A DNA stretch of 64,000 nt from a virus (IMGVR_UViG_3300031760_000004:92294-156293), one strand, 5' to 3'. Positions 2,448 to 59,782 are shown, counted from the first letter of the stretch. Made by a program: numbers and translations. The notes: generated by a model not told the origin, from the sequence alone.

Positions 2448-3569
2448 ATGGCAAGAAAACTGGCAAGTGTTGTTGAGATTGAATCGGTCGAGCCGATTCC
2501 CGATACGGAGCGGCTCTCCGTGGCGACCATGCATGGCAAGGGCTGGAAGGTCGTCGTGGGGCGCGAAGATTTCAGGCCCGGTGACTGGGCGGTGTACTTC
2601 GAGATCGACTCGTACCTTCCGGACGAGGAGCGCTACGCATTCCTTCGCGAGCGCTGTCTGCGGAAATTCTGCACAAAGGGCGGAGAAGTTCTTAAGAAGG
2701 GGCTCAGGATCAAAACCATGAAGCTCCGCGGGGTGATCTCCCAGGGGCTGCTCATGCCGTTCCGATACTTCACGGAGCTGTACACAAGCGACGGTCTGAG
2801 AGCGGTCAACGAAGGAGACGACGTGACAGAGCGTCTTGGAGTGGAGCACTTCGACGAGGTAAAGGCCGCGCTGTCCCCGGCGATGGGAAACCCAATATCA
2901 GCCGAAGCCGCCGGCTCATTCCCGTCGTACGTGCCCAAGACCGACGAGGAACGCATCCAGAACCTCGTGGAATACTTCACCACGATGAAGGATCGCACGT
3001 TCGAGGTCACGGTCAAGGCCGACGGCAGCAGTGTTACAATGCTGTACGCTCCGAACGAGGACTCTGAGGCGCCGTTCAAGGTATGCTCCCGCAACCTCAA
3101 CCTGAAGCCCGAAAAGTCCGACGGCACCAAGCCGCTGCCGTGGCAGATGGCCTTCAAGTACGACGTGGAGAACAAGCTCCGCAAGTACTGGGAGGACCAC
3201 GGAATCGAACTGGCCGTGCAGGGCGAGCTGATTGGTCCCGGCATCCAGAGCAACCGCGACATGCTCACCGAGCATGAATGGCGGGTGTTCAAGATCTGGG
3301 ACATCACCAACCAGCGGTACCTTCTTCCTGGCATCACGAAAAAGGTCTGCGACGGCATGGGGCTGAAGTACGTGACCGTGATCGCCTCCGGCGTGCCCGT
3401 GTTCCAGCGGTTCAAGAACGTCGACGAGCTGCTCTTATTCGCGGAGGGCAAGACCGACCGCGGCAACGAGCGCGAGGGGCTGGTGTTCAAGACGATGGAC
3501 GAGCCGTACCGTACGTTCAAGGCGGTCAGCAACCGCTACCTGCTCAAGCAGGCCGCGAAGGAGGACTGA
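2448..3569 (+). CDS. RNA ligase (DRB0094/Rnl2-like) with N-terminal OB-fold
   Basis: N-terminal RKLASVVEIESVEPIPDTERL; nucleotidyltransferase motifs KADGSS, QGELIGPGIQ, EGLVFK, FKAVSNRYLL; AAGGAGG RBS. Confidence 0.9.
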   Translation: MARKLASVVEIESVEPIPDTERLSVATMHGKGWKVVVGREDFRPGDWAVYFEIDSYLPDEERYAFLRERCLRKFCTKGGEVLKKGLRIKTMKLRGVISQGLLMPFRYFTELYTSDGLRAVNEGDDVTERLGVEHFDEVKAALSPAMGNPISAEAAGSFPSYVPKTDEERIQNLVEYFTTMKDRTFEVTVKADGSSVTMLYAPNEDSEAPFKVCSRNLNLKPEKSDGTKPLPWQMAFKYDVENKLRKYWEDHGIELAVQGELIGPGIQSNRDMLTEHEWRVFKIWDITNQRYLLPGITKKVCDGMGLKYVTVIASGVPVFQRFKNVDELLLFAEGKTDRGNEREGLVFKTMDEPYRTFKAVSNRYLLKQAAKED

Positions 3570-5410: not shown

Positions 5411-5678
5411 CATAGTCGAAGACGTGCCATGCTGGGCTACCGTGTATCTGATGTACGGTGACGACACCGGTCTCAGCGAGGAGGACAAGAAGGAATGCGA
5501 CGAGTTCGTCGCAGACCTAAGAAAACAGGGCATGGTCCTACTGGAACCCATTGAGGAGTCGCACAATGACTTCAACAGCTGGCCCGCGTTTGGGCTCGCA
5601 TGCGACACCGAGAACTGGGTTGTCGAAGTGGTCCCGAAGGAGAAGAGGAAAAATGGCGGCAAGAAGAAGACGGTATGA
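5400..5678 (+). CDS. hypothetical acidic protein
   Basis: GAGG RBS, coupled to upstream gene. Confidence 0.7.
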   Translation: MKTDIVEDVPCWATVYLMYGDDTGLSEEDKKECDEFVADLRKQGMVLLEPIEESHNDFNSWPAFGLACDTENWVVEVVPKEKRKNGGKKKTV

Positions 5679-5682
5679 ACGC

Positions 5683-6126
5683 ATGAACGCACGAAAGGTG
5701 CGTGACGCGGTAAAGTGGCTCATCGACACTCAGGAGGGGTGCGTCCACCATCAGGTTGGCGCGACACGCCTCATGGACGTGTTCGTGGCCATCGGATGGC
5801 GCGAATGCGACGACGCCGAGACGCTCCCTGATGGCAGGTTTAACCACAAGCCGGTATGGCGCGTATGCTGGAAGATCGGCATCCAGACCTCCGGTTACTA
5901 CCACATGATGACGGACTTGGACTGGGACTTCGACTACCCGTGGGGCGGAGAGTATAACGACTGCTACGTGGTCGACGGAGAGATCTGCGACCAGAACGGC
6001 CCTGTTCCGACCTGGAAGGAGTGCCAGCATATCTCCAAGTACATCAACGGGGAGATCATGGGCGTAATCAAGTTCCAGAAGGAGATGGAGCGCAACCACG
6101 AGGGCTCCGGAAAACCAAAGGAGTAG
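5683..6126 (+). CDS. hypothetical protein
   Basis: ORF in gene run; start uncertain (5653 or 5683). Confidence 0.65.
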   Translation: MNARKVRDAVKWLIDTQEGCVHHQVGATRLMDVFVAIGWRECDDAETLPDGRFNHKPVWRVCWKIGIQTSGYYHMMTDLDWDFDYPWGGEYNDCYVVDGEICDQNGPVPTWKECQHISKYINGEIMGVIKFQKEMERNHEGSGKPKE

Positions 6127-6129
6127 GAC

Positions 6130-6450
6130 ATGGACGAAAAAGTCGAGAAGCTGATGGACGACGCCGGTCATGCCGCGTCGGAAAAGGTTACGGAGGCCGT
6201 GAAGAAGGCCATGGAGCGCATGAAGGGCCCGATAGGCGACATCGGCGCGTCATTCGGCGACAGGGAGAAGATAAGCCACGGCATCGATGGGGTGCTCGCG
6301 GTCGTCATGGACCTAGCCAAGGAGGCCTGCGGCATCGGCATGAGGGCCGGGATAGAGACGACAAGGGCGCTGGTGGAGAGCGTCGTCGGCGACATCAGGG
6401 CGGACATGAAGGTCGTGAAGGAGGCAGTCTGTGCGGGCAAGCGAGCTTAA
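6130..6450 (+). CDS. hypothetical helical protein
   Basis: AAGGAG upstream. Confidence 0.65.
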   Translation: MDEKVEKLMDDAGHAASEKVTEAVKKAMERMKGPIGDIGASFGDREKISHGIDGVLAVVMDLAKEACGIGMRAGIETTRALVESVVGDIRADMKVVKEAVCAGKRA

Positions 6451-6718
6451 GGCCGCCATCACCAGGTTCAACAACGCCAGGCACGTCGCGGACCGCGTCG
6501 TCCGGGCGGCCGTACCACGCGTAAGGGACGAGAAGGGCCTCGAGATAACGGACCTGGAGATAGCCGTGGACGGCGGCGGCAGGGAGTACGTCCGCATCTA
6601 CTACCGGCATCCCAGCGGGCTCAACATGTGGGAGTTGTCGGACGTGTGGATCCCGTTGCAGCTGTGGGGGTGCTCCGACAGGGCCATCGAGAAGTACATG
6701 ATAAAGGGCGAACTTTAG
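6431..6718 (+). CDS. hypothetical protein
   Basis: AAGGAGG RBS, GTG start. Confidence 0.65.
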   Translation: MRASELKAAITRFNNARHVADRVVRAAVPRVRDEKGLEITDLEIAVDGGGREYVRIYYRHPSGLNMWELSDVWIPLQLWGCSDRAIEKYMIKGEL

Positions 6719-6756: not shown

Positions 6757-6832
6757 GCGGCCGTGGTGAAATCGGACATCACGCAACCCTCCTAAGGTTG
6801 ACTTCCGGGTTCGAGTCCCGGCGGCCGCACCA
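6757..6832 (+). tRNA. tRNA-Arg(CCT)
   Basis: acceptor GCGGCCG/CGGCCGC, anticodon arm CAACC-CTCCTAA-GGTTG, TTCGAGT T-loop, encoded CCA; TATAAT at 6730-6735 upstream. Confidence 0.95.
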
Positions 6833-6841
6833 TCTTCAACA

Positions 6842-6917
6842 GGGCCCTTGGCGCAATGGTTAGCGCAAGTGACTCATAATCACTGGGTTGCAGGTTCGAG
6901 TCCTGCAGGGCCCACCA
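6842..6917 (+). tRNA. tRNA-Ile2(CAT) (lysidine type; elongator Met less likely)
   Basis: GGGCCCT/AGGGCCC acceptor with C4:G69 and C5:G68, loop CTCATAA, A73, CCA; resembles E. coli Ile2. Confidence 0.9.
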
Positions 6918-11593: not shown

Positions 11594-11771
11594 CGAGCCG
11601 GAGACCACCAGGGAGCACGCCCGCTACGCGTGGGAGGGCTTGAAGATGGTCGTTGGCAGCTCGGCCGTTCTCGCATGGCGGGGGGCCAAGGCCGCGTACG
11701 TGAAGGTCCGCGGCGCAATCAGCAGTCGGAAGGGAAGTGGCGATGGGGATCGAGCAGAAGGAGAGGACTAG
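11562..11771 (+). CDS. hypothetical protein
   Basis: GGAGG RBS. Confidence 0.55.
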   Translation: MERQRETIVIDEPETTREHARYAWEGLKMVVGSSAVLAWRGAKAAYVKVRGAISSRKGSGDGDRAEGED

Positions 11772-12300
11772 TCCGAACCGCAAGGTCGTGATACGGGCCC
11801 TCAAGAAGACCACGAAGGCGATATCGGAGCAGCCCGGGACAAGACTTGTGTACGCGCAGGACCCGACGTTCGGAGTAATAACGGTGTACGCCTACGCGGA
11901 CTTCAAGACGTACAAGAAGCTGTCCGGGCTGCTGTTCAAGAACCCCCGGCCGAGCGAGTTCCCGGCGAACGGGTTCGCCGCGTTCGGACCGTCCGTGGAC
12001 GAGCTGGACGCGATGATATGCCTGGTGTGGGTGAACAACCGCCAGCCGATCGACGAAACCCTGCCCGTGTTCGTGCACGAGATCGTGCACATGTCGCAGG
12101 ACATGCTGGACCACGCCGGCGTCCAGGACAAGTCCGGCGAGGTCCAGGCGTACACCGTCGAGCGGGAGACGATAAGGATCATGAAGGAGATGCTGGACAT
12201 GAGGACGTCCAGGTCGCCATCGATCAAGAAGGTGAAGGAGATAGTTGATGGAGAAAAATGCGAAGACGGTGACGACGACTCCGGCTCGGACAGGACGTAG
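11737..12300 (+). CDS. HExxH-motif protein (putative Zn-metallopeptidase-like)
   Basis: FVHEIVHMSQDML followed by EVQAY. Confidence 0.55.
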   Translation: MAMGIEQKERTSPNRKVVIRALKKTTKAISEQPGTRLVYAQDPTFGVITVYAYADFKTYKKLSGLLFKNPRPSEFPANGFAAFGPSVDELDAMICLVWVNNRQPIDETLPVFVHEIVHMSQDMLDHAGVQDKSGEVQAYTVERETIRIMKEMLDMRTSRSPSIKKVKEIVDGEKCEDGDDDSGSDRT

Positions 12301-19887: not shown

Positions 19888-20236
19888 AGGCGGCGTGGTA
19901 CTGTTCCACCCCGGCAGGCGAGAGTTCATAAGAATAGCGTTCGGCAACGGCGACAATCTTACCCAGGAGGACCTTGAGACAAAGGACTCGAACGGCAACG
20001 GCGTCGACGACTACATGTACCTGACGACGTACAGTGTGCCGCAGGACATGGGATGGGACGGGCTGTGCCTGCAGGAAAAGGACGGTGGCCTGATGCTGTT
20101 TTCGCACGAGACCTACAGGTCGGGCGACATACGCGAGATGCTCGCCCCGTCGCTTGACTTCATGGGGTGGCCGGACAGCGTCGGCGAATATGTGTTCGTG
20201 TCAGGGGAGGATCTATGCGAAGAGCAGGCAAGATAG
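19811..20236 (+). CDS. hypothetical protein
   Basis: GGAGG upstream. Confidence 0.65.
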   Translation: MEAKAENGYPTKCLAGKIPKNKFEYEGGVVLFHPGRREFIRIAFGNGDNLTQEDLETKDSNGNGVDDYMYLTTYSVPQDMGWDGLCLQEKDGGLMLFSHETYRSGDIREMLAPSLDFMGWPDSVGEYVFVSGEDLCEEQAR

Positions 20237-20439
20237 TCTCAGGCGGAGGCTTCGCCAGGATAGACGGAAAGACGTACTCCTACGTGTATCGTAAGGGAAA
20301 GCCGGTAGTAACGGGAATAACCGGAGACGAGTTCAAACACGGTGTGGAATCCGTATTTGGAAAAGGCTGGGTTGATGACGACAAGCCCGTGAGTAACGAC
20401 GAAAAAGACAAGAGGGAGGACCAGTGCGAACAATCATAG
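20215..20439 (+). CDS. hypothetical protein
   Basis: GGAGG RBS. Confidence 0.5.
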   Translation: MRRAGKIVSGGGFARIDGKTYSYVYRKGKPVVTGITGDEFKHGVESVFGKGWVDDDKPVSNDEKDKREDQCEQS

Positions 20440-20858
20440 GAACTCTTCTTAGCGTGATGATCGGAGGTTTAGCCATGGCCGATGTGACTGTTTCCAAGGA
20501 TTTCCTGGCAAGGATAGCCTACGTGGAAAGCAAAGGAAACCCGTCGGCCTTCAACCGCGGGTCTGGCGCGTACGGCATGTACCAGATACGAATGCCGTAC
20601 CTGTCGGACGCCAACGAGGCGATGGGCACTGACTACACCCTTGACGACATGTTCGACGCTGAAAAGGCCGAGCAGGTAGTCAGGGCGTATCTCATGAAAT
20701 GGGGGTCTAAGTTCGCCGAGCGTCACGGCAGGCTTCCAACTGACGAGGAGCTGGCCCGTATACACAATGGCGGTCCACGCGGCGCCGAGAGGCAGAGCAC
20801 GCTGAAATACGCGGCGCTGTTCAGGGACGCGCCAGAAGGGGGCGGAAGATGCTTCTGA
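20424..20858 (+). CDS. lysozyme-fold muramidase (i-type/destabilase-like or lytic transglycosylase) with signal peptide
   Basis: IAYVESKG (catalytic Glu), GAYGMYQI, ARIHNGGPRG; hydrophobic N-terminus ending A-M-A. Confidence 0.8.
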   Translation: MRTIIGTLLSVMIGGLAMADVTVSKDFLARIAYVESKGNPSAFNRGSGAYGMYQIRMPYLSDANEAMGTDYTLDDMFDAEKAEQVVRAYLMKWGSKFAERHGRLPTDEELARIHNGGPRGAERQSTLKYAALFRDAPEGGGRCF

Positions 20859-21190
20859 ACGAGGAGACGTTCCTGCTGAGGACGACCGACGGGGAGCTGG
20901 TCCTGGCCAACCTTGACGTCAAAGAGCAGTGGGATTCGATAAACCTATACTGGCCGAACAGCGACGGGTTCGGAATTCCGGCCGTGTGGGTCGGAGACGA
21001 CGGCGGATACGAGAGGGAGGTTGAACAGGCGTACGAGTACTCCGGAACCGGGTTCTCGGACGTCTTCAATGTCTTCAAGCCGTACGACATGGAGACCTTC
21101 ATACGAAGGGTCATACAGAAAAGGGACAAGTACTACCCTGGGTACGAGGAGTCAACCCAGGAAATCCTAATGAGAATGGAGCCGACATGA
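20849..21190 (+). CDS. hypothetical protein
   Basis: overlapping ORF. Confidence 0.65.
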   Translation: MLLNEETFLLRTTDGELVLANLDVKEQWDSINLYWPNSDGFGIPAVWVGDDGGYEREVEQAYEYSGTGFSDVFNVFKPYDMETFIRRVIQKRDKYYPGYEESTQEILMRMEPT

Positions 21191-21501
21191 ACATTAAGTT
21201 CGCAGACGAGGAGACGCTCAACCGTTTCCAGCAGTGTCGGGAGATGTCACGCGAGTGCGAGAACTCCCTCGACAGAGTGATCACAAACCTGATGTGCTGG
21301 CACCCGCACACCGACACCGCGGTTATCTACCGAGACTTCCACGAGCAGTCGTTCTTCTTCCAGGAGATCCACGCCGACGGGAAGAAGGGAATGTGCGGCG
21401 GCATCATCTTCCATGGCAAGCACGACAACGGAGGAGACGGCGGTCCGTCAACCTTCAGCGTGTGCCTGAGCCCGACGGACGGGTACGCCATCCACACCTA
21501 G
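21187..21501 (+). CDS. hypothetical protein
   Basis: ATGA coupling; common phage-type SVCLSPTDGYAIHT C-terminus. Confidence 0.7.
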   Translation: MNIKFADEETLNRFQQCREMSRECENSLDRVITNLMCWHPHTDTAVIYRDFHEQSFFFQEIHADGKKGMCGGIIFHGKHDNGGDGGPSTFSVCLSPTDGYAIHT

Positions 21502-21509
21502 GGGGCCTC

Positions 21510-21863
21510 ATGGACATTTCGGAGGCCACGGTGAGCCAGCTCCTGTCGGAGCTCAGAGGCCGTAAGGAAGTGATAGCAGTCAAATGCTGGGTCGTAAAGG
21601 ACCTGCACTACTGGATTGACAGGGAGATCGAAGTCGAAGACACCGGCGACGACGAGGACAAGGAGCGGGCTGCGTTCATGGACGCGCACCGAGACGAAAT
21701 CGTTGAAGAGGCAGTTGGCAACCTGTTCGATCTTGAGGACTGCATCCAGGAGGACTGGCGGATGATCGACGCCGTCATGCACGACGCCGTCATGCACGCT
21801 AGGGTGAAAGATTATGACCGCAAGCACGCGGCAGACAACAACAAGGAGAAGAACAATGACTAA
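21510..21863 (+). CDS. hypothetical acidic protein
   Basis: ORF in gene run. Confidence 0.65.
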   Translation: MDISEATVSQLLSELRGRKEVIAVKCWVVKDLHYWIDREIEVEDTGDDEDKERAAFMDAHRDEIVEEAVGNLFDLEDCIQEDWRMIDAVMHDAVMHARVKDYDRKHAADNNKEKNND

Positions 21864-22509
21864 GGCAACCTACGAACTGACGTTCACCGAGATGGCTCTC
21901 GGAAGCAAACCCTCCAACGAGGGCGTTTTCACAGACTACATCGCCGCGAACAAAAAGGACGGAGTGGATCCTGAGGAGGTGGCCGCGGCCAAGGAGGCCG
22001 AGGAGCGCGTTAAGGAGTCCATCACCGTCTTCCACCGCATGGAGGATGGAAAGACCCCGATGGTGTGGAACTACCAGATCAAGGGTCTCGCCAAGGAATC
22101 GTGCGGAGCGCTTCGCCGCGTCGACGGAACCCTTTCGGCCAAAATCGCGTCGTACAAGACGATCATCGACACCCTCGTGTTCGTCGGTCCTCGCAAGATT
22201 CCGCTTGTCCTTCCCGAGGGAGGGGAAGTCGGCGTGTTCGAAAGGCCGCTGCGCGCAGAGACCATGCAGGGCCCGCGTGTGGCCCTAGCGAAGTCCGAGA
22301 CCGTCCCGGCCGGAACGAAGATGGCCTTCGAGGTCACGTTCATGACCCCGAAGGTTGGAAAGTCAGACAAGGTCGTCGACCTCAAGGAGGCGTTCGAGGA
22401 GTGGCTTGACTATGGAGAGCTCCATGGATTCGGCCAGTTCAGAAACGGCTCTTACGGGACGTTCACCTGGCGCGAGATCAAGCCCGAGGACACTGAAAAG
22501 GCCGAATAG
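21856..22509 (+). CDS. stand-alone RAMP/Cas7-like RNA-binding protein (217 aa)
   Basis: RAMP hallmarks: N-terminal strand YELTFTEMALGS, YQIKGLAKES helix, ERPLRA..ALAKSETVPAGTKMAFEV, C-terminal Gly-rich loop GELHGFGQFRNGSYGTF; AAGGAG RBS. Confidence 0.8.
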   Translation: MTKATYELTFTEMALGSKPSNEGVFTDYIAANKKDGVDPEEVAAAKEAEERVKESITVFHRMEDGKTPMVWNYQIKGLAKESCGALRRVDGTLSAKIASYKTIIDTLVFVGPRKIPLVLPEGGEVGVFERPLRAETMQGPRVALAKSETVPAGTKMAFEVTFMTPKVGKSDKVVDLKEAFEEWLDYGELHGFGQFRNGSYGTFTWREIKPEDTEKAE

Positions 22510-22519
22510 TTTGGCCAAC

Positions 22520-22543
22520 GGGGGCCGGTCCATTCCGGCCCCC
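22520..22543 (+). other. perfect 9-bp GC hairpin (leader or processing stem)
   Basis: GGGGGCCGG-TCCATT-CCGGCCCCC, no U-tract, 10 nt after the RAMP stop. Confidence 0.75.
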
Positions 22544-22553
22544 TGTCCGCTAT

Positions 22554-23285
22554 GGCTACGTGCGGCACAGAGCGGATATGCTTTGCTTAGGCAGGGCAAA
22601 GCGGAGCGGTACGCCGCGAAGGCCTAGCGCAGAATCGCTCAGTGTAGGCAAAGCAACGAGGAGCGAAGCGACGGCAGGGCAACGAAATGCGAAGCAAGTC
22701 CAGGCAGCGCTTCGGCTCGGAATTGACGTGCGTCGATATGCCAGGGAAAAGCGTGGATTGGCAATGGCAACGACATGCGAGGATACGCAACGCACCGGAA
22801 ACGCAGCGAGCTGCGATGGCATAGCACAGATCAACAGTGCAAGGGCATGGCTGGGCAAAGACACGTGACGCAACGCGTCGGCACTGCATGGAACGGAAGA
22901 GCAATGAGGGGCAAAGGCATGGAGTAGCAACGAAATGCTACGGCAACGCAGGGACTGGCGCCTAAAGGCAAAGCAATGGCAAAGCAATGATCAGCGCAGC
23001 GAAGCGCGGCGCCGGCCTAGCTATGATGGGCACGGCAAAGCGCAGAAGTGCAATGGCATGGTTCTGCGAAGCAACGATTCGCGACGGCTGAGCATAGACG
23101 AGAAGCGTTCGGCGGCGCATTGGCAAAGCGAAGCTACGACTGGCACCGCAAAGGCACAGACTGGCGCAGATTCGCGACGCAAAGGCGCAGACTGGCGCAG
23201 ATTCGCGACGCAAAGGCATGGACACGCAAAGAGATGCGATGTGCTACAGCGGCAAAGCACAGAATATTGTCGCAAGGCAGGGGAA
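22554..23285 (+). repeat. 5-nt-periodic array [G(G[C/A/T]NNN)4-8]x23; putative guide-RNA array
   Basis: manual parse: 142 pentamers, 136 with G at the same phase; a +1 phase shift at GG(C/A) 22 times; complete block lengths 21-41 nt, all 5n+1. Confidence 0.85.
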
Positions 23286-23307
23286 CTGAAACTGGGAGGA
23301 TAAGAAC

Positions 23308-24030
23308 ATGGACATCAAGGTGTTCACCATGGTGGAGGCCGTGCATCTTTCAGGCACGGCAAGCCAAATGGACAGCGACGACCTGTCGGCATGGAGCCAG
23401 ACATACTCAAGCATGCCGGAGGCCATGCTGTCAGTGAAAAACGCGATACAGAGTGCCGTGTACGAGTTCTACAACGGCTCCGACATGACGTGCGACGACC
23501 TTGACAAGATTGTCGACGTCGTGTTCGGCGACAGGCGTGAAGACGGCGACTGGGTGTGGGATCCGGCAGACAGGTCATATCTGTGGCGGATAGTTGAGGA
23601 CGTGCTGTACGTCCCGTGCGACTGCGAAGACGAGCCTGACACGACCGTGGAGCAGATGGGACACCGGAAGGACGACAGCGAGCACGTTGATGGGCTTGAC
23701 GGATGCAAATACCCGAAGCTCAGCGTCTGGTTCAAAAACGCCAATACGCCAGGAAGCGAAATCGGCATGGAGTTTTCAACTCCGGAGGAGGCCCTGGCAT
23801 GGGCGGAGACATACGACGGTGGTAACTCCGAGTTTGGAAGGACCTGGTTGCCCGTAGTCATCAATGTCGTAACCCCCGGTTACACAAGGGAAATACATGA
23901 CTGCGCCGGCAGCTGGGAGGACTTCATCGGAGAGCTGGCGTACGCGTGTGGAGACGACGGGTCGTTTGCAGATCCGGACGAACTTGAACGCAGGAACGAA
24001 AAGTACCGTGAATGGTACAGGGAGGTTTAG
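23308..24030 (+). CDS. hypothetical acidic protein
   Basis: GGAGG RBS. Confidence 0.75.
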   Translation: MDIKVFTMVEAVHLSGTASQMDSDDLSAWSQTYSSMPEAMLSVKNAIQSAVYEFYNGSDMTCDDLDKIVDVVFGDRREDGDWVWDPADRSYLWRIVEDVLYVPCDCEDEPDTTVEQMGHRKDDSEHVDGLDGCKYPKLSVWFKNANTPGSEIGMEFSTPEEALAWAETYDGGNSEFGRTWLPVVINVVTPGYTREIHDCAGSWEDFIGELAYACGDDGSFADPDELERRNEKYREWYREV

Positions 24031-31658: not shown

Positions 31659-31735
31659 GCACCCTTAGCACAATTGGCCAGTGCACCAGATTGTCGATCT
31701 GGCGGTTGCCGGTTCGAGCCCGGCAGGGTGCGCCA
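31659..31735 (+). tRNA. tRNA-Asp(GTC)
   Basis: GCACCCT/AGGGTGC acceptor, CCAGA-TTGTCGA-TCTGG arm, G73, CCA. Confidence 0.92.
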
Positions 31736-31742
31736 TTTTTAC

Positions 31743-31819
31743 CGCGGGGTGGAGCAGGTGGAAGCTCACCAGACCAATACTCTGGAGGTCGCGTGGTTCG
31801 AGTCCCGCCCACGCTACCA
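31743..31819 (+). tRNA. atypical tRNA-like gene: initiator-like body with AAT anticodon (possible pseudo-tRNA)
   Basis: CGCGGGGTGGAGCAG 5' end, CCAGA-CCAATAC-TCTGG arm (C33), mismatched acceptor and T-stem, CCA end. Confidence 0.6.
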
Positions 31820-32594: not shown

Positions 32595-32685
32595 CGTGAG
32601 GTATGACCAGTGGCGACGTCAGTGGACTGTAAATCCACCACCCTTTCGGGAAACACCGGAGGTTCGACTCCTCCCCTCACGACCA
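32595..32685 (+). tRNA. tRNA-Tyr(GTA), long variable arm, C1:G72
   Basis: CGTGAGG/CCTCACG acceptor, GTGGA-CTGTAAA-TCCAC arm, GGAGG-TTCGACT-CCTCC, A73, CCA. Confidence 0.9.
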
Positions 32686-51840: not shown

Positions 51841-54800
51841 ATGGCCGAAGAAGACAAGGTCCCGGACTTCCTGCGCGAGTTTGACGACGCCAAGTCGGCC
51901 CGCCGGAACATCTACGACAACACGCTTGAGGCGATGAGGAAGCGCTTCCCCATTGAGGACGACAACTACCGCCTCGAGCTTAACGACCTCCATTACGACG
52001 GGCCTCTGGAGTACTCCCTCGCCGAGCAGAAGAAGGCGCTTCTAAACAACCGCAATCTCCGTACCAACCTGGTTGGCACGTGGCGGCTCGTTGATAAGAA
52101 GACGGGAAACGTCGTCGATGAGCGCAAGGACTCCGTGATGCAGGTGCCGTACTGGACAGACCGCGGCACGATCATCAACAACGGCTCCGAGTACACGGTC
52201 ATCTCCCAGTCGAGGTTGCGTCCCGGCGTGTACGCCCGCAGGAAGTCCAACGGGGAGCTCGAGGCCCAGTTCAACATCAAGCCCGGTACTGGCCGCGCCT
52301 TCCACATAGGCCTGCAGCCCGAGACCGGCGTCATGACGCTCCAGACGGGGCAGGGCTCGATGCCGCTGTACCAGATACTGAGGGGGCTTGGAGTAGACAA
52401 CAAGGACATAGTCAAGTACTGGGGCGCCGACGTTGCGGCGGCAAACGCGCAGAAGGCCGACGCCCAGGCCTGGAACAAGCTGTACCGGAGGATGGCCGGC
52501 TACAAGGCCGTTCCAAACGCCACGGAGGCGGACAAGATCCAGTTCGTCAAGGACGCCGTGTCGAAGTACGAGGTCGACCCAGAGGTCGTCGAGCGCACCA
52601 TGGGGCTCAGGAACGTGTCGACTGTGACGCCGGAGCTGCTTCTCAGGGCGTCGCAGAAGGTTTTGAACGTGTCCCGCGGCGACGAGAAGCCGGACAACCG
52701 CGACAACCCGAGGTTCAGCAAGTTCTACGGGGTGGAGGACTACTTCAAGGAGCGTGTCGAGAAGAACGCCGGCCGCCTGGCGAACACCTTGCTTTACAAG
52801 GCCCGCAGGAACGGCAGCCTGAAGGGAATACAGCGCAACGCTCTCAATCCGTGGGTCGACACAATCATAAACGGCTCCGGGCTTGCCATGCCCGGAGAGG
52901 AGGCGAATCCTCTTTCCACCCTGGAGCAGATGTCGCGCATCTCCAAGTTCGGACTTGGCGGCATAGGGTCGAAGGACGCCGTGACCATGGAGGCCCGCGA
53001 CGTCCAGGGTGACTACCTCGGTTTCGTGGATTCCATCCAGGGACCGGAGTCTGAAGCCATCGGTGTCGACGTGCGCGCCGCGTACAAGACGTTCCTCGGC
53101 AAGGACAACAAGCTTTACGGCGAGTTCATCGACAACCAGACTGGCAAGAAGGAGTACGTCGACATCGCCACGGCCTCCGACAGGCTCGTGGCCTTCCCAG
53201 GCCAGGATCCGAACGCCAAGTACGTCATGGCGATCAAGGACGGCATACCGCAGCGCGTTCCGCGTGACGAGGTGAGATACACGGTCCCGTCGTACGCCCA
53301 CATGGTCGCCTCCAACACCAACATGAACCCGATGCCGACCGGCGTTCAGGCCGGCAGGCAGTTCTACGGGTCGAAGTTCTGGTCTCAGTATCTGCCGCAG
53401 GCGAAGGGCGAGACGCCGCTTGTGGACACCCTGATGCCGGACGGCAAGCTCACCTGGCGAGAGTACTACGGCCGCAAGGTGGGGACGCTCAGCTCTGATG
53501 TCGACGGCGTGGTCACCAAGGTGGACGACGACAAGGTCGTCATCAAGGGCAATGACGGCAAGACGTACACCAGGGAGCTCACAAAGAACGTACCGTTCAA
53601 CCGCCTTAGCCAGATAAGCTACTTCCCGGCCGTGGAGGTTGGACAATCGGTGAAGGCCGGCGACATGCTGGCCCACTCGAACTACACCGACAGGAAGACC
53701 GGCGCCATCAACATGGGGCAGAACCTGCATGTGGCCATAATCCCGAACGGAGGTTCGTTCGAGGACGCATACGTGATCAGCGAGGCGGCGGCAAAGAGGA
53801 TGGCGACAGACCGGCTGTACAGCTTCGACCACGAGACCAGGAACGGCGTCACCATAGGCAAGAACAAGTTCATTTCGGCGTATCCATCGAAGTTCACGAA
53901 GGAGCAGGTCGAGACGCTTGACGACAACGGGATCGTAAAGCCGGGAACGATTCTTCACAGGGGCGACCCCATCGTGCTGTCTCTCGGCCCGAAGATGCTC
54001 TCGTCGCAGGACAAGGCCCTCGGAAAGCTTTCAAAGGCTCTCAGAAACTCCTACACCGACCGTTCGGAGGTGTGGGAGCACGACTACGAGGGGAAGGTCG
54101 TCGACACGGCCGTGACTTCCAAGGGGGCCAAGGTTAACGTGTCGGCGCAGCCGCCGGTCCGCGTCGGAGACAAGCTGTCCCCGATGGCCGGCATCAAGGG
54201 CGTCGTGGGCCAGATCATCCCGGACGACCAGATGCCAAGGGACGCCGTGACGAACCAGCCGTACGACATGCTCATGAACACCATGGGCTTCCTGTCCCGC
54301 GTTGCGCCGAACCAGATCATCGAGATGAACCTGGCCAAGGTTGCCAAGAAGACCGGAAAGCAGATCCGGATTCCGCAGCTTCCGCCTCCCGAGGGATGGT
54401 ACAGGTGGGCGCAGGCCCAGATGAAGGCCGCCGGCGTTCCCGAGACGGCGGACGTGTTCGACCCGGTCACCGGTCGTACCATGAAGGGCATCGGCGACGG
54501 GTACATGTACACGATGGCGTTCCACCACCTTGCCGAGAAGAAGGCCTCCGCGGTGGGTGCCGACGGGTCGTACACGCAGGACGAGCAGCCGTCGAAGGGC
54601 GGCTTCTCCGGAGGCAAGAAGACCTCCGGAATGGACCTCTGGGCCATGCTGGCCCACAATGTGCCGGATGTCATAAAGGATTCCCAGGCCATACGTGGAA
54701 CCAGGAACGACCAGTACTGGCGCGCCCTGCAGCTCGGTCTTCCGACTCCGGAGCCCGAGGAGCCGTTCATCTACAAGAAGTTCCTGAACACTCTCAGGGC

Positions 54801-56226
54801 CGGCGGCGTAAACGTCACCGAGAAGGGCGCCATCACCAAGATCATGCCTCAGACCGACAAGGACGTCGACCAGCTTGCGCAGGGACGCGTCATTACGTCG
54901 GCCGACATGGTCGACTCAGATTTCGAACCCGTCAAGGGCGGCCTTTTCGACCTTGGCAAGACAGGCGGGATGGGCGGCAACCAGTGGTCCATGATACAGC
55001 TCCCGGAGCCGGTTCCGAACCCGATCATGGAGGAGCCTGTCAGGCGCCTTCTCGGCCTTACAACATCCAAGATGGAGGACATACTGGCTGGCCGCGAGAA
55101 GCTCGACGGGAAGACCGGAGGCCAGGCGCTCAAGGATGCGCTGTCCAAGGTGGACGTGGACAGGCGCATAGCCGAGTCGAAGCGCGGTATAACCACGCTG
55201 CGCGGCCAGAAGCGCGACGACGCCGTGAAGGTCTACAGGTACCTAACCGCCATGAAGGAGCAGGGCCTGAAGCCGCATGACTGGATGGTGTCCAAGGTGC
55301 CGGTGATCCCGCCGGCGTTCAGGCCTGTGTCGAAGATGGGCGATGTCGCGCTTGTCTCCGACATGAACGAGCTCTACAAGGACATACTCGAGAACGCCAA
55401 GAACTTCGAGGAGCTCAGGAAGGACGTGTCCGACGACGGCTTGGCCGACGAGCGCCTGAACATCTACAACTCGGTGAAGGCGGCGTACGGCCTTGGCGAG
55501 CCGATCACCCCGGAGAACGCCGCGAAGGGCGTGAAAGGGGCCATGCGGCAGGTGATAGGGTCGAGGCCCAAGTTCGGGATGTTCCAGAACAAGGTGCTGT
55601 CCAAGGCTGTTGGAGGTGTGTCGCGTGGCGTCATCTCGCCGGACCTCAACCTGGACATGGACCAGTGCGGGATCCCAGAGGTCATGGCGTGGCCGATGTA
55701 CAAGCCGTACGTCATGCGGGAGCTTGTCAGGAACGGCTACCCGTCTGTCACGGCCGTCAAGATGATAGCCGACAGGACGGACACGGCAAGGCACGTTCTC
55801 GAGAAGGTCATGTCTGAGAGGCCCGTCATACTCGATCGCGCCCCCACATGGCACAAGTACAACTTCATGGCGTTCAAGCCGTTCCTGACCGATGGCGACA
55901 CCATACGCGTGTCACCGCTGATCGTCAGCGGGTTCAACGCCGACTTCGACGGAGACCAGATGAACGCCCATGTCCCGTCGTCGCAGAAGGCGGTGCAGCA
56001 GGCGTACGAGAAGATGCTTCCGTCAAGCAACCTCACGTCGATGACGGACCTCAAGTCGCCGAGGCACACCCCGTCCAAGGAGCAGATCTTCGGCCTGTAC
56101 GCCCTCACGAAGGGCATGGACACGACAAAGCCCGTCAAGGTTTTCAACAGCGTCTCGGAGGCCAAGCAGGCCTACGCCAGGGGCGAGATCGGCCCTAACG
56201 ACCCGATCGAGATTCTCGGGAGGTAG
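51841..56226 (+). CDS. rpoBC: DNA-directed RNA polymerase, beta subunit fused to N-terminal half of beta'
   Basis: beta motifs GTIINNGSEY, NPLS..RISKFGLGG, SFEDAY, GDKLSPMAGIKG, HHLAEK; beta' motifs VPVIPPAFRP, DRAPTWH, NADFDGDQM. Confidence 0.95.
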   Translation: MAEEDKVPDFLREFDDAKSARRNIYDNTLEAMRKRFPIEDDNYRLELNDLHYDGPLEYSLAEQKKALLNNRNLRTNLVGTWRLVDKKTGNVVDERKDSVMQVPYWTDRGTIINNGSEYTVISQSRLRPGVYARRKSNGELEAQFNIKPGTGRAFHIGLQPETGVMTLQTGQGSMPLYQILRGLGVDNKDIVKYWGADVAAANAQKADAQAWNKLYRRMAGYKAVPNATEADKIQFVKDAVSKYEVDPEVVERTMGLRNVSTVTPELLLRASQKVLNVSRGDEKPDNRDNPRFSKFYGVEDYFKERVEKNAGRLANTLLYKARRNGSLKGIQRNALNPWVDTIINGSGLAMPGEEANPLSTLEQMSRISKFGLGGIGSKDAVTMEARDVQGDYLGFVDSIQGPESEAIGVDVRAAYKTFLGKDNKLYGEFIDNQTGKKEYVDIATASDRLVAFPGQDPNAKYVMAIKDGIPQRVPRDEVRYTVPSYAHMVASNTNMNPMPTGVQAGRQFYGSKFWSQYLPQAKGETPLVDTLMPDGKLTWREYYGRKVGTLSSDVDGVVTKVDDDKVVIKGNDGKTYTRELTKNVPFNRLSQISYFPAVEVGQSVKAGDMLAHSNYTDRKTGAINMGQNLHVAIIPNGGSFEDAYVISEAAAKRMATDRLYSFDHETRNGVTIGKNKFISAYPSKFTKEQVETLDDNGIVKPGTILHRGDPIVLSLGPKMLSSQDKALGKLSKALRNSYTDRSEVWEHDYEGKVVDTAVTSKGAKVNVSAQPPVRVGDKLSPMAGIKGVVGQIIPDDQMPRDAVTNQPYDMLMNTMGFLSRVAPNQIIEMNLAKVAKKTGKQIRIPQLPPPEGWYRWAQAQMKAAGVPETADVFDPVTGRTMKGIGDGYMYTMAFHHLAEKKASAVGADGSYTQDEQPSKGGFSGGKKTSGMDLWAMLAHNVPDVIKDSQAIRGTRNDQYWRALQLGLPTPEPEEPFIYKKFLNTLRAGGVNVTEKGAITKIMPQTDKDVDQLAQGRVITSADMVDSDFEPVKGGLFDLGKTGGMGGNQWSMIQLPEPVPNPIMEEPVRRLLGLTTSKMEDILAGREKLDGKTGGQALKDALSKVDVDRRIAESKRGITTLRGQKRDDAVKVYRYLTAMKEQGLKPHDWMVSKVPVIPPAFRPVSKMGDVALVSDMNELYKDILENAKNFEELRKDVSDDGLADERLNIYNSVKAAYGLGEPITPENAAKGVKGAMRQVIGSRPKFGMFQNKVLSKAVGGVSRGVISPDLNLDMDQCGIPEVMAWPMYKPYVMRELVRNGYPSVTAVKMIADRTDTARHVLEKVMSERPVILDRAPTWHKYNFMAFKPFLTDGDTIRVSPLIVSGFNADFDGDQMNAHVPSSQKAVQQAYEKMLPSSNLTSMTDLKSPRHTPSKEQIFGLYALTKGMDTTKPVKVFNSVSEAKQAYARGEIGPNDPIEILGR

Positions 56227-57919: not shown

Positions 57920-59782
57920 ATGCCGACGACCATTGGACAGATACTTGTGAACGAGGCGCTCCCGGAGAAGTTCCGGGACTATAATCGCGTTCTCGGGGCC
58001 GACGGGATGGAGGACCTTCTGAAGCGCATCATCCAGGAGGATCCAGACTCGTACCGCGACGTGTCGTACAAGCTGATGCGCATAGGCGCCAAGGCCGCAT
58101 ACGACACCGGCACGACGCTGAAGCTGTCTGATCTTGAGCCGGCCCTTGACAACACCGAGCTGTACCGCAGGCTTGACGCCGCCGAGGACGCCATACGCGG
58201 AGACAGGTCCCTGTCAGACGACCAGAAGCGCGAAAAGCTGTCCGAGCTCTATGACAAGGTGTACTCCGACATCAAGGAGCGCGCCTACGCGTCCGCGGAC
58301 GCCAGGGGCAACGGGTTCGCCATGCAGGTCAAGTCGAAGGCCCGCGGAAACAAGGACCAGCTTTCAGCCATGCTGTCCACGCCCGGCGTGTACAAGGACC
58401 CTAGCGGGCGCACTATACCGATGTTCATCAGGCACAGCTACGCCGACGGTCTTTCCCCCGCCGAGTACTGGGCCGGCTCGTACGGCGCCAGAACCGGTGT
58501 TGTCTCGACCAAGTTCGCCACCGCCAATGCAGGGGCCCTTGGAAAGCTGTTCTCGTCCGCCTCCGTGGAGCAGGTCGTTACAGAGGATGACTGCGGCACG
58601 GTTTCGGGAATGCCCGTGAAGACTGACGACAAGGACAACATCGGGTCTGTGCTGGCGGCCGACGCCGGCGGGTACAAGGCCGGGACCGTGATAAGCAAGG
58701 CCGTCATGGCCGACCTCCAGAAGCAGAAGATCGAGGACATCCTCGTCAGGTCGCCTGTGACGTGCAACGCCAAGAACGGCGTGTGCGCCCACTGCGCCGG
58801 CATCAGGGAGAACGGAAAGTTCCCCGAGATAGGGTACAACCTCGGACTTAATTCGGCCTCTGCGCTTGCCGAGAGAGTCGCCCAGGGAAGTCTGAACACA
58901 AAGCATTCGGGAAAGAAACTCGAGGGGTCCAGCCAGTACTCCGGCTTCGATATGCTGAAGTCAATGGTGACCGTCCCGAAGATCTACAAGGACCGTGCGA
59001 CCGTTTCGGAGGTCGACGGACGGGTGGAGAAGATCGAGAAGGCGCCCCAGGGCGGTTCGTATGTCTGGGTGAACGACAGCAAGTTCTACGTTCCGTCCGG
59101 ATACGACGTTCTTGTCAAGGAAGGCGACGAGGTCGAGGCGGGCGACCAGCTGTCCGACGGCGTGGTCAACCCGGCGGACGCCGTGAAGTACAAGGGGATA
59201 GGCGAGGGCCGGCGCTACTTCACGCAGCGCTTCACTCAGGCTTACCGTGACTCAGGCTACAAGGGAAACCGCCGAAACGTGGAGGCTCTTGCCAGGTCAA
59301 TCATCAACAACGTCGTGGTGGACACCGAGGACTCCGAGGGACAGATGCTCCCCGGCGACGAGGTGTCGTACTCCAGGTGGGCGTGGGGCTTCAAGCCCAG
59401 GCAGGGTTCCGTCCAGGCGTCGCCACGGCAGGCCGTCGGCAAGTATCTTGAGCAGCCGGCGCTGCACTACACCATAGGGACAAGGGTGACCAAGAAGGTT
59501 GCGGACGAGCTTGAAAAGTTCAAGGTTCCCAGTGTACTATATAACGAGGCTCCCCCGGGGGTTCACCCGGAGATGAAGTCGATTGTCGAGACGACCGGCC
59601 AGACTGACGACTGGATGGGGCGTCTCGGAACCACGTACATCGGAAAGCGCCTGGTCGAGGACGTCCAGCGCGGCGCCGAGAGTAACTCACAGGGGCTGAA
59701 CCCATACCCGGCGGTGGCCAAGGGGACCACGCTGGGGCAATGGGGGACGCCAGGGCACAGGAACGAGGAGTTCCACTACTAG
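57920..59782 (+). CDS. rpoC: DNA-directed RNA polymerase, C-terminal part of beta'
   Basis: KARGN, YADGLSPAEYW..YGARTG (bridge helix), VTEDDCGT, RSPVTC..GVCAHCAG (Zn), ALAERVAQGSLNTKHSG (trigger loop). Confidence 0.93.
   Translation: MPTTIGQILVNEALPEKFRDYNRVLGADGMEDLLKRIIQEDPDSYRDVSYKLMRIGAKAAYDTGTTLKLSDLEPALDNTELYRRLDAAEDAIRGDRSLSDDQKREKLSELYDKVYSDIKERAYASADARGNGFAMQVKSKARGNKDQLSAMLSTPGVYKDPSGRTIPMFIRHSYADGLSPAEYWAGSYGARTGVVSTKFATANAGALGKLFSSASVEQVVTEDDCGTVSGMPVKTDDKDNIGSVLAADAGGYKAGTVISKAVMADLQKQKIEDILVRSPVTCNAKNGVCAHCAGIRENGKFPEIGYNLGLNSASALAERVAQGSLNTKHSGKKLEGSSQYSGFDMLKSMVTVPKIYKDRATVSEVDGRVEKIEKAPQGGSYVWVNDSKFYVPSGYDVLVKEGDEVEAGDQLSDGVVNPADAVKYKGIGEGRRYFTQRFTQAYRDSGYKGNRRNVEALARSIINNVVVDTEDSEGQMLPGDEVSYSRWAWGFKPRQGSVQASPRQAVGKYLEQPALHYTIGTRVTKKVADELEKFKVPSVLYNEAPPGVHPEMKSIVETTGQTDDWMGRLGTTYIGKRLVEDVQRGAESNSQGLNPYPAVAKGTTLGQWGTPGHRNEEFHY

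Follow-up and report, generated by a model that had tools for sequence, protein, structure and literature searches.

The 64,000-nt stretch of viral DNA analysed here (IMGVR_UViG_3300031760_000004:92294-156293, hereafter the window) very probably carries a genuine VIPR (Viral Interference Programmable Repeat) system, a reading to which we assign a probability of roughly 0.9. The two parts of the system are the vipr gene (21856-22509) and, just downstream on the same strand, a staggered array (22554-23285) of short vrRNAs, about 23 in number. The evidence for it lies in the fold and the family membership of the encoded protein, the anatomy of the array, the linkage of gene and array among relatives, and the module-wise variation between strains. 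The source record is a 162,185-bp IMG/VR virus that is 100% complete by CheckV, and the runs containing the sequence are bovine gut or rumen metagenomes. The elements of the locus are the following.

21856-22509, + strand: vipr, the open reading frame (ORF) for the 217-amino-acid (aa) protein Vipr, a stand-alone RAMP/Cas7-like protein; ATG at 21856, stop codon at 22507-22509.
22520-22543, + strand: G+C-rich hairpin between the vipr stop codon and the array, with a 9-bp stem, a 6-nt loop and no T tract after it.
22554-23285, + strand: staggered vrRNA array of 732 nt, with 23 modules and 142 units N1-G2-[C/A]3-N4-N5, from a parse allowing phase shifts.
Module starts (position of G1), + strand, modules 1 to 12: 22554, 22590, 22621, 22647, 22673, 22714, 22745, 22766, 22797, 22818, 22844, 22880.
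Module starts (position of G1), + strand, modules 13 to 23: 22916, 22942, 22978, 23014, 23055, 23086, 23122, 23153, 23184, 23215, 23251.
23153-23214, + strand: tandem duplication of one 31-nt module (the near-identical modules 20 and 21), from the module listing and Tandem Repeats Finder.

VIPR is described in two preprints (bioRxiv 10.64898/2026.04.26.720920 and bioRxiv 10.64898/2026.04.26.720927) as a system for RNA-guided DNA silencing. The first-pass annotation of the window, made from the sequence alone, had already pointed to VIPR, and correctly so. In the first preprint (bioRxiv 10.64898/2026.04.26.720920), Vipr proteins carried by phages are reported to bind vrRNAs built from YNNGG repeats; the NN dinucleotides of these RNAs base-pair with double-stranded DNA while every third base of the target is skipped, and competing phages and satellites are repressed in this way. 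Seven types are distinguished there, with the repeat variants NNNGG, YNNNG and NNNNG, and staggered arrays are described, in which vrRNAs come from positions overlapping by 1 nt (methods section on VIPR type classification and legend of fig. S18). An array is recognised there as an adjacent intergenic tract of at least 4 pentanucleotide repeats with the YNNGG or a related consensus. A total of 670 Vipr proteins have been published. In the structure determined by electron cryomicroscopy (bioRxiv 10.64898/2026.04.26.720927), one protomer occupies each repeat; G1 is read by H17 and D177, G2 by R138 and W178, and the pocket for Y3 is formed by helix 1 and the G-loop (residues E71, M72, C173, T175 and R179). 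Pairing of NN with one skipped base is the only geometry shown experimentally.

The translation of the ORF contains the motifs YQIKG, SETVPAGT and GFGQFRNGSYGTF, on which the first-pass annotation had based its proposal of a RAMP protein. The AlphaFold2 model of Vipr, computed with 36 homologues as input (pLDDT 80.8, pTM 0.75), has an RRM-type core with a helical insertion, a long beta-hairpin at residues 126-150 (the thumb) and a C-terminal Gly-rich loop at residues 191-202; as modelled, the protein appears to be a minimal RAMP made of an RRM core, a glycine-rich loop and a thumb. When this model was compared with the PDB using Foldseek, CRISPR RAMPs were the only matches, type VII Cas7 coming first, followed by type III Csm3 and Cmr subunits, with E values down to 6e-7. 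VIA-align gave a Z score of 12.4 to Csm3, followed by more than 40 further CRISPR RAMP entries, and the proposed RAMP fold is borne out by both comparisons. Among AFDB clusters, ranks 1, 2, 3, 4 and 6 are held by A0A1F4YLN4, X1U2U4, A0A0F9A1L0, A0A2D6XG06 and A0A661D0E2, with CRISPR RAMPs ranking behind them; the closest match is A0A1F4YLN4 (E 6.6e-17, 31% identity). These five entries are named in the methods of the first preprint (bioRxiv 10.64898/2026.04.26.720920) as the founding RAMP homologues in non-CRISPR contexts, and because the founders are the top AFDB clusters, the window protein is taken as a member of the Vipr family. Ranked by structural similarity, it sides with the Vipr lineage and not with CRISPR Cas5/6/7.

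Searches with the Vipr sequence in Pfam, PHROGs and the PDB gave nothing usable, and neither Pfam nor PHROG returned a Cas family. The homologues number in the hundreds and are unannotated. A profile search of 1.84 billion representatives retrieved 2,187 Vipr relatives at E <= 0.001 and 953 at E <= 1e-30, the figure of 2,187 referring to cluster representatives at 50% identity. Among GenBank phages there are only four relatives, which are uncultured, human-faecal and 38-41% identical. The best two profile matches, P0122 (458 aa) and P0123 (432 aa), are twice as long as usual; the Vipr profile matches each of them in two stretches, and they may be tandem double-Vipr fusions.

Downstream of vipr, the first-pass annotation had counted 142 pentamers in 732 nt, with one phase almost always G and the next base mostly C. 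These counts proved exact, but no single fixed phase yields them. Read in a single 5-nt register, the tract has no constant G (47-59 G per phase of about 147), and the Fourier spectrum of G shows one strong peak, which is located at 5.15 nt instead of 5.0, and lacks the 3-nt peak typical of coding sequence. A dynamic-programming parse in which occasional 4- or 6-base steps were allowed gave 143 units, 137 of them starting with G, and 20 six-base steps, all of which start with GG. Re-read in the published repeat frame N1-G2-Y3-N4-N5, the tract divides into 142 units grouped in 23 modules, with 4-8 units apiece. The base at G2 is G in 136 of these 142 units, and position 3 is C in 97, A in 37 (26%), T in 7 and G in 1. 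The units make up 710 nt (142 x 5), and the remaining 22 nt are single linker bases between the 23 modules; the module lengths are 21, 26, 31, 36 or 41 nt, i.e. 5n+1, and the phase moves by +1 with each module. All modules open with GGC (21 of them) or GGA (2), and one to three full GGC/GGA units stand at the start of each. In the non-initial units, N1 is A in 39, C in 30, G in 30 and T in 20, and in most units the place that the first G takes in the canonical GGY is free. There is neither an invariable 3' tail nor a conserved tail between modules. Around the duplicated module, Tandem Repeats Finder reports a repeat at 23147-23218 with a period of 31, 2.3 copies and 95% matches.

The tract is unique in the 162-kb phage genome: its parse score is 83, compared with 17 for the next best place, and the maximum scores in five Markov-simulated genomes were 12-15.5. 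The next best place (genome positions 11640-12132, score 17) was considered as a second array and rejected, as an open frame of at least 193 codons runs through it. Spurious ORFs of 102-143 aa are found within the window array. The hairpin that had been noted immediately after the gene was recovered at 22520-22543, the region 22507-22556 folding at -27.6 kcal/mol (z -3.2). It is kept only in the 97%-identical relative L009, while in the other relatives the array begins right after the stop codon. Neither Rfam families nor a hammerhead ribozyme were found in 21000-24000.

The linkage between gene and array is conserved in homologues, in line with what the first-pass annotation had expected of them. 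Five metagenomic relatives have a clear array of the same kind directly 3' of the gene, with protein identities to the window Vipr of 84% (L001), 67% (L003), 48% (L005), 48% (L006) and 97% (L009). In L002 (72% identity) the array is weaker, with 126 of 153 units starting with G, and in L004 (50% identity) there are only about 110 nt with a chance-level score. The most regular array, composed mostly of 31-nt modules, is that of L005, a prophage in a 1.6-Mb contig. At its positions 5617-6624 (- strand) the public gene call is a 335-aa ORF on the opposite strand, and since this call spans the whole pentamer array, it illustrates how easily such arrays are mis-annotated as genes. In IMG/VR, at least 570 viral contigs encode a Vipr relative. 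Of the 80 such loci that were fetched, 79 have a same-strand array, located directly downstream of the gene in 41, directly upstream in 32, on both sides in 4 and within 0.8 kb in 2. The steps across these loci comprise 7,767 of five bases, 1,255 of six and 284 of four.

Between closely related strains, the array varies module by module. Compared with the window, L009 has 88% nucleotide identity in vipr and 82% in the downstream gene, but only about half of the array aligns, the rest having been replaced or inserted; the L009 array has 922 nt and 28 modules. Stretches within the array are likewise replaced in contigs from other bovine-gut runs, and the variable positions turn over while G2 stays fixed. 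The first module is kept in three phages whose Vipr proteins are 67-97% identical (window 22554-22589, L009 1619-1675 and L003 about 1345-1386), while later modules turn over.

The protein and the array can also be compared with the characterised Vipr of Escherichia phage SUSP1 (NC_028808.2, 28474-29061, minus strand), whose sequence has nine of the ten published residues, with V at 175 where the paper has T. In the G-loop, GVGDWR of SUSP1 stands opposite GFGQFR of the window protein, the consensus of the clade being G-x-G-Q-W-R. Of 75 clade members, all except one have Q where SUSP1 has the G1-contacting D177, and in an ungapped comparison of the N-termini H17 lies opposite S17 (S/T in the clade). 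W178 and R179, which contact G2 and Y3, are kept as W/F and R. The G1-reading residues thus appear to be replaced, D177 by Q and, probably, H17 by S, which fits with an array in which G1 is free and G2 and the next base are fixed. Among 75 distinct family members, the base preference at position 3 co-varies with residues 192, 193 and 78. Residue 192 is aligned to the pocket residue at SUSP1 position 175 and residue 193 is its neighbour; the SUSP1 counterpart of residue 78, in helix 1, is not aligned. At residue 192, C-rich arrays mostly go with I, T-rich ones with T and A-rich ones with F; residue 193 is S only in the A-rich clade, and residue 78 is F in C-rich arrays, M in A-rich ones and L in the window's clade. 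This covariation between pocket residues and position 3 is suggestive only, since the groups are essentially three clades.

Judged by its sequence, the window array fits the published descriptions of YNNNG repeats and staggered arrays and not the type II architecture. With the staggered YNNNG/NNNNG systems it shares a stand-alone viral Vipr RAMP gene, an adjacent pentanucleotide array on the same strand, a 1-nt offset from each guide to the next, the lack of tails between guides, and conservation of only one G and the next base. It differs from them in having C or A, not a pyrimidine, at position 3 (the share of A is 26% here and up to 68% in a sister clade), and in that no vap gene is recognised. 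The earlier suggestion of a different G[C/A]-NNN code is therefore new only in part, since YNNNG and NNNNG variants as well as staggered arrays had already been published. The type II systems of SUSP1 and the P. fulva prophage are, like the window locus, phage-borne, with a RAMP fold that includes a thumb and a G-loop of the form G-x-G-[D/Q]-[W/F]-R, and by analogy with them one protomer per 5-nt repeat would be expected here. SUSP1, however, has strict GGY-NN units, 9-16 of them per vrRNA, a conserved 3' tail with a pseudoknot, vrRNAs of about 100 nt and a vap1 gene, whereas in the window G1 is free, each guide has 4-8 units and no tail, 23 guides lie in one tract and no vap gene was recognised.

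Transcription of the array would, by homology with the characterised systems of SUSP1 and P. fulva, most likely proceed from the + strand and probably include vipr. Each five-base unit would then be occupied by one Vipr protomer, as the first-pass annotation had also proposed; G2 and the C or A after it would be kept from pairing, leaving the variable bases exposed for discontinuous pairing with the double-stranded DNA of a competing mobile element, which would be silenced as a result. Where the register breaks by +1, one guide or filament of 4-8 protomers would end and the next begin. We infer four parts of this scheme: that the array is transcribed, that the protein binds it, how guide and target pair, and which biological targets are silenced. 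A weak hint of co-transcription comes from one metatranscriptome library, which contains a 1,147-nt contig spanning vipr sequence, the hairpin and the initial 350 nt of the array found in L009 (97% identical), along with more array pieces. These are assembled contigs of a single library, prepared from the same sample as a DNA library, and they document presence in an RNA library, not transcription; the contig is compatible with co-transcription of vipr and the array.

Several points weigh against the assignment to VIPR. The contig from the RNA library may derive from contaminating DNA. By sequence, the window protein aligns with SUSP1 Vipr over the G-loop only (26 columns, hhalign E 0.002, probability 13%), and position 3 is A in 26% of the units, yet the solved SUSP1 pocket excludes purines. 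An all-against-all blastp comparison found no neighbour protein common to distant loci that could represent an accessory vap gene, a component that VIPR systems typically but not universally have. With two paired bases and one skip, a guide of 4-8 units specifies just 8-16 bases, which is little specificity unless the third variable base pairs as well. Finally, no target was found under any of the tested pairing rules, so that the guide function is one that we infer.

The gapped-pattern search of the variable bases, which the first-pass annotation had put forward as a check, was carried out under the rules NNx, NNN, NNNx, NN, NNxx and xNN and seven further ones, five of these including position 3. 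It yielded no excess over shuffled guides and no informative exact match in IMG/VR or the JGI metagenomes. All modules with 6 or more units in five related arrays were compared with the window phage's own genome and the fetched loci (0.23 Mb) under six rules, and the mismatches of the best hits equalled those of unit-shuffled guides. Likewise, under three rules the 1.08 Mb surrounding vipr genes contained no more matches to 440 unique modules (87 loci) than to shuffled guides, and the same held for 220 of these modules under seven further rules. Near-perfect period-5 matches in the 1.08-Mb set were discarded as ordinary homology, the parser having run into coding sequence. In exact scans of IMG/VR, module 11 had no match under NNN and NNNx, and module 16 had 10 unrelated low-GC matches under NNx with third-base agreement at chance level; under NNN, module 16 had no match in the JGI metagenomes. 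No guide matches above shuffles were found in the 151-kb genome of G001, a relative described below. Module 2, which is conserved in L009 and L002, matches the window itself at 20072-20094 (+ strand) in 15-16 of 17 specified bases under NNNx; given that the site is rich in purines and belongs to the phage's own genome, this match was judged to be probably due to chance. A stop-codon-like depletion in the variable triplets looked promising in 913 units but reached only p 0.037 in the larger set of 3,352 inner units of unique modules. The dependence of N1 on N4N5 was marginal (permutation p 0.037), and substitutions between orthologous modules are spread over all five positions. Our confidence in any specific pairing rule is low.

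These results bear directly on the alternative that survives best, namely that the locus is a relative of VIPR with another code, in which the protein holds G2 and its 3' neighbour alone, the target is specified by three bases of each unit (N4, N5 and the N1 that follows) or with another skip length, and short guides are nucleated at the single canonical GGC. It would account for the lack of conservation at G1 (the composition of N1 in non-initial units given above) and for the replacement of the SUSP1 G1 readers (D177 to Q and probably H17 to S), as well as for the little specificity that two bases per unit would give with only 4-8 units. However, neither NNN nor NNNx nor five other rules gave an enrichment over shuffled guides, the dependence of N1 on N4N5 is marginal, and two paired bases with one skipped is the sole geometry with experimental backing; we regard this alternative as unlikely. 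Similarly doubtful is its extension to the whole clade, according to which the 2,187 representatives (E <= 0.001) would read a code differing from GGY/NN with one skip: only one G and C/A would be held, up to three bases per unit would specify the target, a single 5' GGC unit would nucleate a short filament on each 21-41-nt module, and the +1 break would end it.

Much less probable is that the array does not act as a guide at all and that the RAMP protein has some other role; the array might then be an RNA decoy or sponge, a leader involved in regulation, a repeat used in replication or packaging, or a remnant undergoing decay. The failure to find a target or an accessory gene would agree with this, as would the lack of direct evidence of processing or binding. 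Against it, 79 of 80 diverged viral loci retain the pairing of gene and same-strand array, G2 stays constant despite the turnover at the variable positions, and the characterised members of the family use such RNAs as guides.

The similarity to CRISPR-Cas components can be considered in the same way. The backbone Cas7 subunits of class 1 systems (Csm3, Cmr4, type VII Cas7 and Csf2) have the same fold as the window Vipr (Z up to 12.4) and form polymers along guide RNA, from which they flip out bases at regular intervals. The window differs in having no CRISPR repeats or spacers and no Cas family among the neighbours, and in showing a period of 5 with fixed bases inside the guide, compared with a period of 6 on a free spacer. 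The first-pass statement that the window contains no repeat-spacer array of the CRISPR type thus held, and the genes neighbouring vipr matched no Cas family in Pfam, the whole genome not having been screened for cas genes. That the gene is an orphan Cas7 fragment of a type III or IV system beside an unrelated low-complexity tract is hardly credible: the best PDB folds are indeed Csm3, Cmr4 and Cas7 of types III, IV and VII, but the window has no CRISPR repeats, the protein has no Cas family in Pfam, its AFDB neighbours are the Vipr founders ahead of the CRISPR RAMPs, and the tract has no counterpart elsewhere in the genome and accompanies the gene throughout the family.

Among the neighbours of vipr, the only Pfam matches are DUF4120 and SLT. 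They correspond to an SLT/destabilase-type lysozyme at 20424-20858 and a DUF4120 protein at 21187-21501, both upstream on the + strand, and the same pair also precedes vipr in the close relatives L001, L002 and L009. Between them and vipr lies an ORF of 119 aa (21504-21863, + strand), whose end overlaps the start of vipr by 8 nt. No Pfam family matches it, and a counterpart (80% identity) exists in the closest relative, L009, alone. The overlap suggests translational coupling, and the ORF could encode a clade-specific partner of the system.

Further along the window, the large proteins encoded at 51841-56226 and 57920-59782 (+ strand) match multisubunit RNA polymerase beta-type subunits in PHROG, and the phage probably transcribes with its own multisubunit RNA polymerase. 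A scan of the + strand for sigma-70-type promoters found none, which says little here because the phage encodes such a polymerase. An RNA ligase gene is located at 2448-3569 (+ strand; PHROG E 6e-85), and five tRNA genes (Arg-CCT, Met, Asp, Ile-AAT and Tyr) at 6757-6917, 31659-31819 and 32595-32685. The sole IMG/VR relative found via the RNA-polymerase gene is G001 (150,989 bp; loci L102-L110), with 79% amino-acid identity in the best segment. Its G+C content is 38%, compared with 60% in the window phage; it has no nucleotide similarity to the latter and no vipr.

VIPR is a very recent class, the preprints dating from April to October 2026, and its experimental characterisation so far concerns only type II systems of E. 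coli and Pseudomonas phages. The locus leaves the VIPR concept itself unchanged. It documents a well-populated Vipr clade from gut and rumen viromes, which differs from the characterised systems in its reduced repeat consensus, its very short guides without tails and the absence of a recognisable accessory gene. This makes it useful for asking how few fixed bases can set the register of a filament, whether the third variable base takes part in pairing, and what it is that large rumen phages silence.

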